Source of the DNA: Dehalococcoidia bacterium
Lineage (GTDB): Bacteria; Chloroflexota; Dehalococcoidia; Lucifugimonadales; UBA3495
Length of the DNA: 64,000 nt
Direction: 5' to 3'
Assembly (NCBI GenBank): GCA_963668585.1
Contig: OY764869.1
Location: 861,212 to 925,211 of the forward strand
A program made the translations under genes and the position numbers. Positions within the stretch are counted from its first letter, which is position 1. Each line of letters starts with the position of its first letter. Below, piece after piece: positions 31,387 through 37,043 of this stretch. The notes beneath the pieces are model-generated. The model was not told the DNA's origin, did no database searches, and saw nothing but the letters and a program-made list of their open reading frames with translations.

Positions 31387-32717
31387 CTAGTTGGGGGTTG
31401 CGCTCCAGACGGTGAAGTTGCCGCCCAGGGGCATGGGCCCGCCGGAGACGCCGATTTCGGGCTTGACGCCGGTGAGGGACCGGGCGCCGGCGCGGCCCTG
31501 GATCTGCTGGATGCTGTCGGTGTGCATCCAGAACCGGCTGCGACCACCGCCAATGTTGCCGCCGCTGGGCAGGATGGGATTGGGCCCTTCGATGCTGATG
31601 TCGGTCTGGTAGAAGTCCAGCGCGTCTCCTCGCTCCATCCCGCGATAGCGCAGTCCCTCGATGTGGAACTGGTGGAACTGGGCGAAGCCATCGTACATAT
31701 TCTCGAAGGAGAGATCGTCAGGGGTGATGCCGGCGGCTTCGTAGATCTTGCGACCGGTGGAGTTGGTTTCGGCTTCCACTTCTTCCAGGGTAGGCGTGAT
31801 GCTGCGGGGTACGCCGCGGCTGGAGGCATGGCCGAGGATGTACACCGGCTTCTGCGCCATGTTCTGGGCGCGGTCGGCGGTGGTGAACAGGTAGGCCGCC
31901 GAGGCATGATCGGGATGTCGTTGTCGAACAGGTTGGCCGGTTTGGCGATCCACCGGGAGTTCAGGTAGTCCTCCGGGGGAAGCTGCTCGGGACGGTGCTG
32001 GGCCCAGTAGCCCTCGGGGAAGAGCAGGCCGTTGCGGCGGGAGTTCTCCATGAAGGGGGCCATCATGTCGTGATTCTTGCCGTACTTGGTGCAGTACTGG
32101 GCAAACTGCAGGGCGGTGCCGTAGCAGCCGGGCGCGCCCCACAGGGTGCGGCCGGGGCTGAGCGCAAAGGCGCCGGGGACTTCGTCGGCGGCGCTGATTC
32201 CACCGTGGTTGTAGCGGCCCTCCAGGTTGTGCCAGCCCTTGAGCACGAGGCAGGTGCTGGCCAGGCCGTCGCCGACGGCCTGAGCGGCAATCACGATGGC
32301 GGCGGACATGCAGCCGGGGGCATACATGGTGAACTTGACGTTGGTAAGCTCAGGCATATTTTTGATGAGCCATTCGGCGCTGAGTTGGCCGATGCCATCC
32401 AACGGGTCGTCGGTCGGGTTGAACGCGTTGACGACGTCCTGGGGGACTGGGGTGTTGGCGTCCCAGTGGGCGCCGGTGGTGGTTACGGGGACGAGGACGA
32501 TGCCGTCAACCTCGCTGGGGTCAACGCCGGCGTCTTCGATGGCCTTGCGGCAGGCCATGATGCTCCAAGCGCCGACGGAGGAATCGGGCTGGCCGTCCCA
32601 GCGACGGGTGGTGGGCGAGTGGCCGATGCCGACGGCGGCGACCTTGCCCCGGTGTTCCCAAACGCCCAAGCCCTCGGTGGAGCGGTACATTGATTCTGGC
32701 GCCATTTGAGTGGTCAT
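31387..32717 (-). CDS. Thiolase-like (SCP2-thiolase-type) protein, frameshifted near 31905
   Basis: N-terminal frame gives VAAVGIG...DYLNSRWIAKP..LFDNDIP; a second frame gives ASAAYLFTTADRA..MAQKPVYI...MYDGF...PSGGNIG; adjacent to a DUF35 gene. Confidence 0.75.
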
Positions 32718-32856
32718 AGTTTACTCCTCTGACTCTACTGCGAGGGCTCCTGGGTTCCGGCTTTCGCGGGAATGACGTTCGCAGCCGGTGCGGACGCGAC
32801 GTCAGGAGACCGTGCTGGAATGACGGTAGTTTCGCGGGCGGGTTGGCAGGTCGGGT

Positions 32857-33267
32857 CTATTCGACCACCTGCCATTCGGGAACCTTCTGACCGTTGGCGG
32901 TTTCCTCGAAGACAACCTGGACGGCGCCGCCAACGGGCACCTCGTCGGCCGGGACGCCGGGGAGGTGGGAGTACATGAGGATGCCGGGGTCCTCGTCGAG
33001 CATGATGGCGGCGAGGTTGAAGGGGAGGTCTTCTTTCAAAGACGCGACTGGGCAGTCGTACACCACGCCATAGTTGTAGATTTTGCCGCGTCCGCTGACT
33101 TCCTGCCAGGTCATGTTATCGCCGGAGCCGCATTGGTCGCAGGCTGGCCGGGGCGGGAAGCAGAGGCGATCACACGCGGTGCAACACTGCACCACCAGAC
33201 GGCCTTCGTTGGCGGCGTCAAAGAAAGGCTTGTTTAAATCGTCGGGCACGACACCCTGTTTGACCAT
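32857..33267 (-). CDS. DUF35/ChsH2-type zinc-ribbon OB-fold acyl-CoA-binding protein
   Basis: PFFDAA.EGRL.VQ.C..C....FPPR..C..CGS, SGRGKIY. Confidence 0.88.
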   Translation of the reverse strand: MVKQGVVPDDLNKPFFDAANEGRLVVQCCTACDRLCFPPRPACDQCGSGDNMTWQEVSGRGKIYNYGVVYDCPVASLKEDLPFNLAAIMLDEDPGILMYSHLPGVPADEVPVGGAVQVVFEETANGQKVPEWQVVE

Positions 33268-33749
33268 ATTTCCCCCTCAATACCGACAAAACCCGGCGAT
33301 CCGCGCCGGAATTTCAGCCGGAATCAGATGATTTTGCAGGCGAAAGGTTATGCGGGAATGGCAAGCGTGTCAAGTTGGGGCGGCATCTCACGCGTACCCA
33401 GTTTGTTGGCATGGGCCATGCGTGGACGATGGCGCGGAGTTTTAACGCGAAGGCGCAAAGACGCGGAGATGCGAAGGGACGATTGGGCTCGCGAACGACG
33501 TGTCCAATGACGCGTCCAATAATGAACCTTGGGATCCCGTTGCGCAGGCCCCATGATGGTTTGATGAAAATGGGTACGCATGAGGAGGCGGCGGGCCGGA
33601 CCCATCACCTGCATATGAGCGGACGAAGGGCGAATGATGATTCGCCCCTACACCGGGTGCGGTTGCAGGGTGCATGGGTATGAGGCCCGCGCCAGTGATG
33701 TGGGACGGTGGGCGGTTGCTCCGGTGGCCTTCTCCTTTTGGTTGTTGTT

Positions 33750-34130
33750 GTGGTCTGGTATTTCCGGTGTCGGGTTTGCGGTTCGGGTTGCGTGTCGGAG
33801 CACGGCCAACACTATTTTGCGCAGAGTTAGCGTCCTAAAGTTCCGTGTACCCGCAGTTCTCCGGCTGAAAGCGCCGCAGATTGAGGTCTGCGACTGAAGG
33901 GGCCGAAGCTTTGCGGCACGGGGCGGTGGTGACACCCGCCGGGTTCCGGGAGCATGGTCGCGGAAGAAGACGACCCCAGGCCCCTGGGAACCATTTCTGC
34001 GATCTGTTACCGACAGGCCGTTGAGCGACCCGAACCTAAATGACACCTGGCCAGGTTTGGCAGTCGGGTGAGCGTCGTTTCATGCGCCGCCCCGACTCCC
34101 GCCCGGTTCTCGAGTACCTTGCGGGGAACC
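33750..34130 (+). ncRNA. Candidate large structured RNA of unknown family
   Basis: Long-range nested helices including 33780-33791/34025-34036, several internal hairpins, a GNRA loop, and mostly plus-strand-compatible G-U pairs. Confidence 0.45.
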
Positions 34131-34312
34131 TGACATGGCTAGGATAGAACGGGGGCGGGGCGGGGGGCAACGGGCGGGTGTCACTGGGTGGGGGTTTATT
34201 TTTTACATCGATTTACAGGATACGCAGGATGGGGTTGGCGGTTGGATGTTGGTGGAGCAGGGGCGACGCGTGGGTCGCCCCGGTTTGAGGATTTACGTTA
34301 GCATTTGTTGCG

Positions 34313-35035
34313 CTATGAATCCGGGCCGTATTGTATTACCTCCCAAGTTGAGCCGTCCCTATACGTTCGAAATCTATGACGCACACCATCTACTGTGGCG
34401 CTTTGTGAGGGAGCCGACTGGAAAAACCTGAACCAATCATCAAGCCACATTTGGCCCCATCCGTGATATGGCCCACCGTCGGTAACGGCGAATACGTTGT
34501 TAACAACGTCGTTAGGAAGGCGGAACCAGCAAGCTTGACCAGGCGTGAGTGTTTGGCGTACGTAGCACTCAGCGGAGGCGGTTGGGCGACCGGGGATCGT
34601 TGCTTCGTCGGACGACGGTTGTGGGGCAGGCGCGGGCTGGACTGCTGAGGACCATCCCGACCACTCGGAGTAGCCTCCGCCGAAGCGGCCGTCTGCCTCA
34701 TCGGTGGCACGGATTATTGCGTGGTGGTTTTCGTCTCCGGTGAGGCCGCTCACCGTGTAACCGGTCTGGTTGCCCGGGACGGTGGAGTAGTGGAACAGGC
34801 TGTGCCAGTCCCCGCCGGCATCGGAGACGGGCTGTCCCCGGGTCCAGTTGATCCAGCCGACGGTGTAGTATTGCGCCCCCTCAATCCGGTCCCAGGAAAT
34901 CCGGATCACGCCGGGGTCGCCGGTTGCCAGGGCGGTCGGGGCGCTGGGTTTGGCCAGCGTGGCGGGCATGGCGGCGATGCTTGCAATAATGATTACGACA
35001 AAAAGCAATAGGGTGTGAGCAGAGAGTCTTCGCAT
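34313..35035 (-). CDS. Secreted fibronectin type III domain protein
   Basis: Signal peptide; P.AP...I.ISW....GAQYYTVGW...YTVSGL...IRA...YSEWS. Confidence 0.7.
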   Translation of the reverse strand: MRRLSAHTLLLFVVIIIASIAAMPATLAKPSAPTALATGDPGVIRISWDRIEGAQYYTVGWINWTRGQPVSDAGGDWHSLFHYSTVPGNQTGYTVSGLTGDENHHAIIRATDEADGRFGGGYSEWSGWSSAVQPAPAPQPSSDEATIPGRPTASAECYVRQTLTPGQACWFRLPNDVVNNVFAVTDGGPYHGWGQMWLDDWFRFFQSAPSQSATVDGVRHRFRTYRDGSTWEVIQYGPDS

Positions 35036-35656
35036 ATTTCCTCCTCAGATGTGCGACGGTTTTTCAGGGGTTCACATCAGCCTTCCCGGTTCAAATGTGC
35101 AGGCATGATAGATTTCCGGATTCCTGGTTTGGCAGGAATGACGGGATCAAATGAGGGTTACGGAATAAAGTCGCAGTGGTGATGGGGTGTGTCGTGCAAT
35201 GCCGGGGGCGGTTTATCTCCGGACCAGCAAGGTGGTTCGTGCAGCAAACTGGGCAGGTTTGAAACCTGCCCCTACGATGGGCGGCCGTCAGTCGGCGGTG
35301 GATACGGGGCGGCCTGACCTGGGTGGCGAATGGGTCGATGGAGCGCATCGCCTTGCCGGCCTCGTCGGCGAATTGGGGGCCTCCCGCAGTGGGAATACGC
35401 AAACGATCAGGGCAGCCGCATGATATCGGTATGATACCCCTGATGCCAACCCTCGCCCTTCACGCGTACCCAGTTTGTTGGTATGAGCCATGCGCTGGAG
35501 CGCCTGGTTTGGGGCTTCAACGGCGCGCATCACGATGACGGCCTGGGTTGGCATGGGTTTGGCAATATCGCGTGGCATGATATATAATATTGATATACAG
35601 GATGATATTACGACATAGATAACAAGGGTCTTGCATAACGGTTGGAGGAGGGCATC

Positions 35657-35977
35657 ATGATACTGCGGAGACTGCGCATAGGCAGGTTGAGCGCGATGGC
35701 GTTCCCGGGCAGCAGGCGCATTGGGCTGGCGGCCGTGAGCGTACTGGCGCTGGCGTTGATTGCAGTGGCGACCGCTCAAGGCGGCGCTGCAATGGCGGCG
35801 ACAGAGGCGGCGCGAGGTCTGGAGAGGTTTGGAACCTGCGCCGTGGATGCGGATTTTGAGGCCGCGGCAGAAGCCCGGATCCTGTGGCATACGGGGGCAG
35901 GCGCGATGAGCGTGGCCTGGCCGGATGTTCCGGTTGATGCGGAGGCTGGGCCGGGTCCTGGGCCGATGTGCCAATAA
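35657..35977 (+). CDS. Small hypothetical exported protein
   Basis: SD GGAGG upstream; hydrophobic signal-like segment resembling the N-terminus of the next gene. Confidence 0.4.
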   Translation: MILRRLRIGRLSAMAFPGSRRIGLAAVSVLALALIAVATAQGGAAMAATEAARGLERFGTCAVDADFEAAAEARILWHTGAGAMSVAWPDVPVDAEAGPGPGPMCQ

Positions 35978-36071
35978 CTGAACGGACGCGGATGCGGCAG
36001 GTCAACCAGCCCCACGCATGAACGATAGATACATGAACGAACGATAGATACCAGATACCAGGGAGATAATC

Positions 36072-36866
36072 ATGGTTTCGGCGAAGATGCGGATGCATCA
36101 AATGAAGAGCAGGGTGTTTCAACCGAACGCGATGGCGTTCCAGGGAAAGCGTATTTTGAGGCCGCTGGCGACGGGTGTGTTCGCCGCCGTCCTGTCGCTG
36201 GCGTTGTTGACGACGCTGTGGGGCGCGGAAGCGCACGCGGCGAGGCCGGCGATGGCAACATTCGATGCGCTGGAAACCTGCGCGGCGGCCGCAGACTGCC
36301 GGCAACCGCAGACATCGGCGGAGCGGGCGGGCCTCTGGAATTGGAGAACAGCCGCGATGAGCGATGTGCAGCCGTCGATTGCGGTCCCGCAGTTGTCGTC
36401 GCACGTTGAGCATCCGGAGGGCAATGGCGAATCCTCGGAGGTCGTGGTGTGGTCCGCCGTGCTGACGGTCGGGAAATCCGCCATATCGTCGATCGGGTAC
36501 CTCGGGTACGTATCCGGCGGCGGGCCGGAGACGGGCAGCATCGACGAGAGCGCTTTCACGCACTGGGGAGTGGACTACGCCGTGACCGCGTTGTATCACC
36601 CGATCGTGGCGGGCGATCCCAACCACCTGTTCCTGCACCTGGACAAGCCGCTGCTCGGCGAGATGACCCTCTCGGTTGGAGACGACGTGTTCGCGATATC
36701 CGACGCGTCGGTGTTGGGCGCGAAGCGGAACGTCTATCACTGGTATCTGGATGCGGGCCTGGGCTGGGCGGCGGGCCAGGAAATCCCGGTGGCGCTGACG
36801 GCCCCGCCACCGCCTGACGGCGGCCAACTGTGGCTGGTGAAGCAACTCGCGCCGGCGGGCGGGTGA
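36072..36866 (+). CDS. Hypothetical exported protein with a beta-rich domain
   Basis: SD GGGAG, signal-like segment, VWSAVLTVG...GY...GSI...Y.V..LY...LGW..G domain. Confidence 0.55.
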   Translation: MVSAKMRMHQMKSRVFQPNAMAFQGKRILRPLATGVFAAVLSLALLTTLWGAEAHAARPAMATFDALETCAAAADCRQPQTSAERAGLWNWRTAAMSDVQPSIAVPQLSSHVEHPEGNGESSEVVVWSAVLTVGKSAISSIGYLGYVSGGGPETGSIDESAFTHWGVDYAVTALYHPIVAGDPNHLFLHLDKPLLGEMTLSVGDDVFAISDASVLGAKRNVYHWYLDAGLGWAAGQEIPVALTAPPPPDGGQLWLVKQLAPAGG

Positions 36867-37043
36867 TGCGCGAAGCGGGCGACGGCCATCACGCGAGGGT
36901 GATGGCCTCTCCCAGCACGCGGGGCTCACCTCAGCAGAATTACGGATGCCGGCGAAGCGCGACGATTGCGTGGCAAAGGTGTTGCAGGTATGATGACTGC
37001 CAGTTTTTACCAACTTACCATCCCACCTGGCGAAACGAATATC

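Follow-up and report, generated by a model that had tools for sequence, protein, structure and literature searches.

What occupies the interval from 32717 to 34313, a region without a credible gene in a 64,000-nucleotide (nt) stretch of a Dehalococcoidia genome (contig OY764869.1; the whole stretch is referred to here as the window)? An earlier note, made from the letters of the window, had pointed to an unrecognised large structured RNA candidate at 33750-34130. In this study, the element was delimited to 33766-34184 on the + strand, and comparison of its homologs indicates that it is almost certainly a real structured RNA gene of about 420 nt and a member of a multi-helix family. The family was previously uncatalogued and constitutes a new large structured RNA class. 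The window copy is a "solo" copy without an open reading frame (ORF), an RNA-only derivative of a two-gene module that joins the RNA to a gene for a HEPN-fold protein. Three features of this system were invisible from the window: the multicopy nature of the family, its range of one genus in the genomes searched, and its protein partner.

Identity, extent and strand of the RNA

Conservation sets in abruptly at GGYGUCAGG (33766) and extends as far as GGGUGUCA(C) (34184) in MAFFT alignments of 17, 44 and 53 copies, the largest of which includes nine ORF-linked copies. The unit runs from a conserved 5' GGUGUC to a conserved 3' GGGUGUCAC; its boundaries are sharp in the 17- and 44-copy alignments, and it is matched by a profile hidden Markov model (HMM) and a covariance model (CM). 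It exceeds the span first proposed, reaching 34184 and including a conserved 3' tail. The two ends of the RNA carry GGUGUCA as a direct, not an inverted, repeat.

The Rfam search that the earlier note had recommended returned no family at gathering score. This holds for Rfam 15 in the entire 64-kb window, with RNase P, tmRNA, SRP, group I and II introns, riboswitches, HEARO, OLE, GOLLD, ROOL, raiA and the abiF motif among the families covered. In permissive mode, the search of 33200-34700 gave a single chance match (E 2.6), and in seven related loci it gave nothing but an unrelated cobalamin riboswitch in one flank. Literature searches on SAR202 noncoding RNA, on HEPN or structured RNA in Dehalococcoidia or Chloroflexota, and on large noncoding RNA with covariation in Chloroflexi brought up neither an account of an RNA or module of this kind nor a paper on noncoding RNAs of the SAR202-type lineage. 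The suggestion of a new noncoding RNA class or a divergent large RNA is supported by the absence of an Rfam match, by the conserved element with sharp boundaries, and by covariation that beats both shuffled and slid controls.

Single-sequence folding of 381 nt gave z-scores of -1.34 on the + strand and -4.18 on the - strand, and alone would have favoured the wrong strand; these scores were therefore set aside for comparative evidence. Among the 53 copies, G-U or U-G variants occur at many pairs (AU:43 GU:9; CG:42 UG:11; GC:22 GU:17; GC:35 GU:12). On the - strand these variants would be A-C mismatches, which places the RNA on the + strand, in agreement with the G-U argument of the earlier note. 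Of the two statistical checks proposed there, the folding z-score was unremarkable on the + strand, and covariation was above both kinds of control.

Fold and covariation

Separate RNAalifold runs on the 34 rows of subfamily A and the 10 rows of subfamily B gave the same architecture. All of the segments quoted as complementary in the earlier note are present at the positions given for them, and most of the proposed helices reappear in the consensus on the + strand. P1 closes the whole fold and pairs GUCGGG (33769-33774) with CCUGAC (34129-34134); 92.5% of its cells are paired, with AU:43 GU:9 at one pair. Within it, P2 leads to P3 and P3 to P4. P2 (33780-33791 with 34025-34036) contains the proposed helix GGTTCGGGTTGC at 33780 and GCGACCCGAACC at 34025; in the 53 copies GC changes to AU in eight rows (GC:34/AU:8) and UA to GC in two (UA:51/GC:2), and subfamily B carries a matched extra U/A on the two strands. 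P3 (ACGGCC, 33802-33807, with GGCCGU, 34016-34021) is 97.8% paired and consistent with the earlier proposal; four of its six pairs are invariant, so that it is barely tested. P4 (CGCAGAG, 33820-33826, with UUCUGCG, 33995-34001) covaries (GC:31 UA:6 at one pair).

The three-way junction to which P4 leads is formed by P5/P5a, P6 and P7/P7a/P7b. The P5 arm (33843-33921) comprises P5 (CCGUG, 33843-33847, with CACGG, 33917-33921), P5a (CCGCA, 33851-33855, with UGCGG, 33912-33916) and a variable tip (33857-33910). It is 99.2% paired, and changes on both sides (UA:42 CG:10; GC:45 AU:6) uphold both proposed helices; the tip has about 30 nt more in copies 1 and 2 of the source genome. In the P6 hairpin (33922-33940), the lower five pairs (GGCGG/CCGCC) and the loop UGGUGACAC are conserved. 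The remainder of the hairpin that had been drawn there is not, and an upper U-A becomes A-A in 11 of 33 rows. In the P7 arm (33942-33992), the proposed pairing of GGUUCC (33942-33947) with GGAACC (33987-33992) is retained as P7; its interior is one continued arm, P7a (33948-33953 with 33980-33984) and P7b (33956-33960 with 33971-33975; GC:27 AU:9 CG:8, UA:28 CG:19), rather than two sub-hairpins. Some copies have 40-nt inserts in P7.

P8, P9 and P10 come after the 3' strand of P2. P8 (34044-34070) is a CACC/GGUG hairpin in subfamily A and UCGCC/GGCGA in subfamily B; it is 75.8% paired and aligns poorly across the subfamilies. The outermost helix of the earlier note (GGTGTC 33766 with GACACC 34042) does not survive, for in both subfamilies CACC (34044-34047) pairs with GGUG (34067-34070) and the 5' end of the RNA enters P1. 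The position of P9 (34074-34093) is degenerate in the window copy; other copies have CGCCGC/GCGGCG there. A hairpin that had been read at 34062-34097 is peculiar to the window copy, whereas the one read at 34105-34130 is the upper part of P10 (34097-34126; 34097-34107 with 34116-34126), which is missing from four of 44 copies.

A conserved 50-nt tail (34135-34184) follows P1. It consists of UAGGAUAGAAC (34140-34150), about 17 variable nt and GCAACGGGCGGGUGUCAC (34167-34184), and it is conserved in subfamilies A and B and in the ORF-linked subfamily D, with no pairing partner established. Two candidate partners were dropped. Pairing with the P6 hairpin (12 complementary bases) shows no compensating changes by eye; pairing with the 5' strand of P10 shows none either, and the four copies that lack P10 retain the tail. 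The possible pseudoknot of the earlier note (TGTCGG with CCGACA) is not supported: two rows have an uncompensated 5' U-to-C change, and in an H-type knot together with P3, a linker of 1 nt would have to span a 5-bp stem. Both strands are near-invariant, beyond the reach of a covariation test, and the pairing is an unproven alternative or tertiary contact that would be sterically strained. Near-invariant single-stranded stretches include GUCGGAGCACGGCCAACACUG, UAGGAUAGAAC and GCAAYGGGCGGGUGUCA.

The fold was evaluated over 73 modelled pairs in the 53 copies, as aligned by MAFFT and unfitted. Paired cells made up 87.0%, against 36.0-44.2% in slid controls and 82.5% in shuffles. Changes on both sides were found at 32 pairs, against 14-25 in slid controls and 20.3±2.3 in shuffles, and none of 500 shuffles reached 32. 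The covariation score was 0.158, against at most 0.087 (slid) and 0.104 (shuffled; 0/500). Kinship alone can beat shuffles without any structure, whereas slid controls preserve kinship. The cleanest covarying helices are P5, P7b, P2 and P4; P3 and P6 scarcely vary and are consistent with the fold without being tested by covariation. MAFFT misaligns P1, P7 and P8 of subfamilies B and D, which lowers the counts for those helices.

These figures bear on the view that the element is a DNA-level repeat with no RNA function, its helices resulting from GC-rich sequence and shared ancestry. The low z-score on the + strand fits this view, as do the ability of related sequences to exceed shuffles without structure and the lack of a demonstrated transcript. 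However, the slid controls, in which relatedness is kept, reach 36-44% pairing against the observed 87%, insertions are matched on the two strands of P2, the hairpin tips differ in length over conserved bases in all three alignments, and the G-U asymmetry indicates one strand. A mere DNA repeat is therefore hardly credible.

Distribution, neighbourhood and expression

The source genome (3.73 Mb in one contig; G000) contains three close copies: that of the window, one 89-90% identical to it and one 77% identical. It also holds two further 3'-tail fragments beside copy 2, and two weak CM matches besides the three close copies. One weak RNA-model match (G000:C1:3569751-3569942, + strand; locus L230; 31.1 bits, E 8e-7) is distinct from the three close copies and from the ORF-linked copy and may be a fifth, divergent one. 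Eight further matches of 132 nt share an identical score (17.9 bits, E 0.0097; G000:C1:2508315-2508446 and at least seven other places) and look like a separate family of near-identical short repeats.

By BLAST, the element was present in 20 of 36 sampled congeners and in none of 24 genomes from other families of the order. An exact core pattern occurred at 62 loci of the species-genome collection, all in records of metagenome-assembled genomes of Dehalococcoidia or SAR202. The CM, which covers the 5' half (156 positions) and was applied with strict filters to genome samples, matched 36 of 54 genomes of the genus, with the highest numbers per genome being 53 (G012), 37 (G033), 20 (G018) and 19 (G019); copies in the genus number roughly 400. 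It matched none of 150 other genomes of the order, four of them from other genera of the same family, and viral contigs contained no exact match to either of two core motifs. As far as sequence matches in the genomes searched indicate, the RNA family is confined to one genus of marine SAR202-type Dehalococcoidia.

In a FastTree phylogeny of the 53 copies, solos group by genome or by pairs of genomes: the three solos of the source genome fall together, as do six copies of G018 including its ORF-linked copy. A separate deep clade is made up of nine ORF-linked copies from nine genomes, among them the copy beside the source genome's protein gene. Upstream of the window copy, the first recognisable gene encodes a ChsH2-like OB-fold/zinc-ribbon protein (32857-33267, - strand), and the RNA adjoins a ChsH2-like gene in nine of 30 genomes examined. 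Because the window copy is closer to its paralogue (90%) than to the ChsH2-adjacent copies of other genomes (about 70-76%), the comparison suggests that a duplication or conversion took place recently. Flanks of different copies recombine in different genomes. All-against-all BLASTP with Pfam revealed no common neighbour gene among 17 solo loci and partial synteny between genomes only. No clean pair of filled and empty sites was found; the ChsH2-like gene on the upstream side is present in 54 of 54 genomes, and the DNA on the downstream side is not conserved (eight of 54).

The first Pfam match downstream of the window copy is a GCV_T gene at 36966. This arrangement bears on the idea of a cis-acting leader or riboswitch-like element that controls a downstream gene on the same strand. 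In several copies a + strand gene does lie just downstream (CoA-transferase III, amidohydrolase, SBP_bac_5, epimerase, HbpS-like in two cases, and F420 ligase). These genes are, however, mutually unrelated; at least three copies are followed by a convergent gene as the next recognisable one (PepX, alpha/beta hydrolase, luciferase-like monooxygenase); the window has no recognisable + strand gene for about 2.8 kb downstream; and the conserved partner of the RNA is a divergent gene upstream. A role as a cis leader is therefore very unlikely.

Weak evidence of transcription comes from one RNA-library run, in which a 193-nt contig covers 34076-34268 (depth 3.3, four differences); other contigs of the same run cover upstream genes. 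The contig crosses a run of T at 34195-34204 (+ strand), a possible transcription end that is found in a subset of copies and at which a consensus terminator scan was silent. Consensus scans of 33500-34400 gave no promoter and two terminator-like sites, neither of them at the RNA end. Contigs of RNA run X6 leave 33340-34009 uncovered, and contigs cannot show absence. One RNA run with words in common with the region carries the label sponge metagenome.

Other features were noted around the copies. REP-like elements, in which CTAC (GTAG or GTAC when read from the opposite strand) comes after a GC-rich hairpin, as in GGGCAGGTTTGAAACCTGCCCCTAC, lie at 33628-33654 and 35251-35275 in the window, upstream of several related copies, and at L201:1330-1360. 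They recur around the RNA copies, and no Y1/RAYT transposase (PF01797) was found in the source genome. Downstream of copy 2 (L002, about 2000-2450; G000:C1:58460-58900) is a tandem repeat of about 137 nt, whose unit contains a REP-like hairpin, the 3' tail motif of the RNA (GCAACGGGCGGGTGTCAC), a run of T and a ATCGATTTnCAGGAT motif. DNA contigs of related strains carry the same junction, CTAC-AGCGATGTGGT-GCAACGGG. In the window, 34300-36966 forms about 2.7 kb without a Pfam-recognisable gene. A 240-codon frame there (34313-35035, - strand) has DNA relatives at G000:C1:1280-1282 kb and in seven other genomes of the genus, and may represent another variable multicopy family. At 32670-32803, two DNA runs show a depth spike around 32754-32759 (about 3900 and 1600, against about 30-120 nearby), which indicates a very short and very highly repeated sequence in those metagenomes.

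The divergent partner gene and its protein

Paralogous copies in G012 share about 1.4-1.6 kb, from the stop codon of an ORF to the T-run of the RNA, rather than about 450 nt. The additional shared DNA is a 310-codon ORF divergent from the RNA, with AAAGGAG 11 nt before its ATG; the ORF-linked copies have AAGGAG or AAAGGAG 11-12 nt before ATG. Relatives of the protein (about 240-310 residues) are encoded in 48 of 54 genomes of the genus. G012 alone has 12 full-length copies at 91-100% identity without stop codons, and one more at 79%. With the RNA profile HMM, an RNA homologue was found within 1.5 kb of 20 of 30 protein loci. Comparison of coordinates showed that all 20 linked RNAs lie head-to-head with the gene, on the opposite strand and on its 5' side, at roughly 80-550 nt from the protein start. 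The source genome has one full-length protein gene (G000:C1:3248872-3249600; AAGGAG 12 nt before ATG), and a divergent RNA stands beside it (L220:675-1113, minus strand; CM E 1.4e-5). Solos outnumber ORFs, with 53 RNA matches against 15 protein matches in G012 and 20 against eight in G018. On these genomic patterns, the RNA and protein gene pair apparently behaves as a selfish multicopy module whose RNA-only derivatives outnumber its complete copies, and the RNA family is very likely the partner of this protein module.

Upstream of the window copy, CTCCTTTT (33732-33739, - strand; the reverse complement of AAAAGGAG) is semi-conserved among solo copies. It is read, from its sequence, as a possible relic of the ribosome-binding site of a lost divergent protein gene. 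Two results weaken this reading: in the ORF-linked copy of L201, some 120 nt, with a REP-like hairpin among them, separate the motif from the ATG, and tblastn detected no significant ORF remnant upstream of the window copy (best E 0.023). Just upstream of the ATG in this G018 ORF-linked copy, a tandem duplication of about 20 nt (CAACGGAGTCATTCATCATT-like) was seen at L201:1375-1425. A cobalamin riboswitch (L198:2491-2735, + strand, in G012; 85.4 bits) follows directly past the protein stop of one module and is probably incidental.

The partner protein is predicted to begin with a HEPN-fold domain, which is followed by an arginine-rich helix and, at the C-terminus, by a conserved Cys/His domain without a structural match. 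Twenty-one members align well, sharing an N-terminal MGTVxHHQ, the arginine-rich helix LRRMRRRV, and a C-terminal PDPHG...CxCH...LSPLWRRALE. An AlphaFold2 model built from the alignment had a pLDDT of 88.8. Residues 1-135 matched HEPN structures at VIA Z 16.4 (2hsb; root-mean-square deviation 3.3, 125 residues aligned), 14.2 (1wol), 13.4 (1ufb) and 12.2, where the caution line for helical bundles is roughly 13. The top 10 Foldseek rows were all HEPN-type domain proteins or HEPN toxins (best E 1.5e-3). According to the model, the N-terminal domain is a four-helix up-down HEPN fold. The C-terminal 138 residues, modelled alone (pLDDT 82.6), gave no structural match (best VIA Z 2.1; Foldseek E at least 3.1).

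Sequence profiles gave weaker signals. Matches to Pfam HEPN (PF05168; best E 0.02, five of 21 members) and PaREP1 (PF05942; best E 0.0065, two of 21) stayed below threshold; one distant relative, P0095, passes the PaREP1 cut-off (30.7 bits against 24.4). Pfam, NCBIfam, PHROGs, PADLOC and a PDB sequence profile returned nothing over threshold for the protein, and Abi_2 matched none of the 21 members at E<=1. Searched with a profile, 1.84 billion representatives yielded only 110 proteins at E <= 0.001, of which 27 reach <= 1e-30. Of 300 other Dehalococcoidia genomes, 11 had matches, all of N-domain length (E 4e-9 to 9e-6). The source genome also contains a stand-alone HEPN-like N-domain paralogue at G000:C1:2640260-2640646 (- strand; profile positions 1-139, E 2.2e-21, in a 176-codon frame). 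At the start of helix 4 are a near-invariant R74, an invariant H76 and an invariant R81 (R-x-H...R), and helix 2 carries invariant R36 and H40; the spacing is not canonical.

It may be asked whether the RNA instead acts independently of the protein, as a free-standing ribozyme, scaffold or regulator, with the protein as a passenger or accessory. Solos retain the fold by compensatory changes, copies persist at one locus in nine genomes, and the long near-invariant single-stranded stretches listed above recall the conserved cores of ornate RNAs. On the other hand, all 20 linked loci, which span deep subfamilies, have the same divergent layout, and this speaks for a functional pair; a housekeeping role is hard to reconcile with a presence in only 36 of 54 congeners and a copy number that varies. 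We regard an independent RNA as improbable.

The copy numbers also invite comparison with RNA-dependent mobile elements. The protein, via its Cys/His domain, and the RNA would together move the module, with the RNA serving as a guide, a bridge or a template, in the manner of OMEGA or IS110 elements, and the solos as non-autonomous riders. Near-identical complete units in many copies, extending from the ORF stop to the RNA end, the excess of solos over ORFs, lineage-specific bursts, the patchy presence in the genus, the breaks of synteny at copies and the absence of any further gene from the unit all fit this picture. Against it, informal inspection of the alignments noticed no guide-like variable segment among similar copies, no nuclease, recombinase or reverse transcriptase fold was found (the C-terminal domain included), no clean empty site was recovered, and the ChsH2-adjacent copy occupies the same place in nine of 30 genomes, which inheritance fits as well as targeting. 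This explanation is unlikely. The same low probability is given to the broader notion of a new RNA-dependent selfish element, in which a ribonucleoprotein of the HEPN-fold protein and the RNA mediates copying or insertion of the module, or RNA-directed cleavage, and the solos are SINE-like (short interspersed element-like) riders. If true, such an element would be comparable in kind to OMEGA and bridge-RNA elements, but built on a HEPN scaffold with a Cys/His domain of no known fold.

Discussion

The most economical mechanism appears to be a ribonucleoprotein in which the RNA restrains or directs the HEPN protein. The RNA would fold into its P1-closed core (P1-P10), and the protein would bind it. 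The protein may be an RNase, and the RNA would restrain or direct it much as AbiF-type HEPN toxins are controlled by their RNA antitoxins. The solos, among them the window copy, may supply RNA in trans, and the module may have spread through its hosts as a selfish element. Analogy makes the antitoxin-like mechanism a reasonable candidate, although it is more doubtful than probable. The whole reading, namely that the RNA is the partner of a multicopy, apparently selfish HEPN-RNA module and works by this mechanism, is put forward tentatively, at slightly less than an even chance.

Several results weigh against this reading. Transcript support consists of one contig, which shows neither strand nor ends and may reflect DNA carry-over. 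The RNA is divergent from the protein gene, unlike the arrangement in type III and AbiF systems, and at about 420 nt it has no ToxI-type repeats and no abiF motif (no Rfam match). In ten of the 30 protein loci no RNA was found by profile HMM; one of these loci is at a contig end, and the RNAs of the rest may be too divergent for the profile. The 12 near-identical complete modules in one genome resemble transposition more than a toxin-antitoxin system. Yet a transposase could not be recognised in the unit, and inspection by eye of the ends of four complete units showed neither terminal inverted repeats nor target duplications, the other marks of a MITE or IS-type DNA transposon. The three solos of the source genome belong to a different subfamily from the RNA beside its only protein gene, which makes action in trans a stretch. 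Finally, the canonical HEPN Rx4-6H motif is not evident at its usual place, which we take to be the start of the last core helix, and the protein may not be an RNase.

The RNA class described here is large, structured and well supported, and it comes from SAR202-type Dehalococcoidia, a marine lineage that is abundant but seldom cultured. Most orphan large RNAs lack a testable handle; here one is provided by a dedicated partner protein, equally uncharacterised, in which a HEPN fold is combined with a domain without structural match. Three kinds of natural variant are available as well, namely complete modules, RNA-only copies and deep subfamilies. The system also bears on how an RNA gene spreads to dozens of copies in a genome of 3-5 Mb.

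Known systems resemble the module in part. OMEGA systems pair IscB or IsrB with a HEARO-type omega RNA, and TnpB with a right-end RNA. Like them, the module has a large structured RNA beside a small protein, a multicopy selfish habit and stand-alone RNA copies; it differs in having no HEARO match, a HEPN-fold rather than a RuvC partner, and no guide-like segment seen. For an IscB/IsrB omega RNA there was no support: RRXRR (PF14239) has no match in the source genome, although this profile is silent in 14 control genomes too, and the neighbours of 17 copies share no such gene. A TnpB right-end RNA was rejected; the sole TnpB-type match (C1:1528768-1528959) is about 630 kb away and far from all RNA copies.

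OLE, GOLLD, ROOL and raiA are large ornate bacterial noncoding RNAs, of which OLE works with dedicated proteins; such RNAs are usually single-copy, or borne by phages or plasmids. The RNA described here resembles them in size class, in its many helices, in its long invariant single-stranded stretches, in a fold supported by covariation and in a biochemistry that is not known. It matches none of the four in Rfam 15, and it reaches dozens of chromosomal copies within one genus in the genomes searched.

Minimal HEPN proteins and HEPN-MNT toxins (PDB 2hsb, 1wol, 1ufb, 5yep, 7ae6) share the predicted fold of residues 1-135 (Z 16.4 to 8.5), and the partner protein gives the weak Pfam HEPN and PaREP1 signals described above. 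It differs from them in having no MNT partner, in its added arginine-rich helix and 100-residue C-terminal domain, and in the Rx4-6H motif not being evident.

The closest functional parallel would be the AbiF (HEPN-type) toxin and RCd22 of Clostridioides difficile, where, as outlined in a preprint, a directly bound noncoding RNA neutralises the protein in cis and in trans in a type III-like manner (bioRxiv 10.1101/2025.04.15.648962). Both systems, as far as that outline goes, couple a HEPN-type protein genetically to a dedicated noncoding RNA. By its sequence features the module does not belong with the type III/AbiF-like RNA antitoxins, given no Abi_2 among 21 members, no abiF match in Rfam and no tandem repeats; nor was there a PADLOC family of note. 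The RNA described here is about 420 nt long with at least ten helices and no internal tandem repeats seen, it is transcribed divergently, and its protein has an extra C-terminal domain without a fold match. The module is multicopy with many RNA-only derivatives. The same preprint proposes HEPN-RNA pairs as the raw material of RNA-guided Cas13 (bioRxiv 10.1101/2025.04.15.648962); a second, independent and far more ornate HEPN-RNA pairing would bear on the origin of RNA-controlled nucleases.

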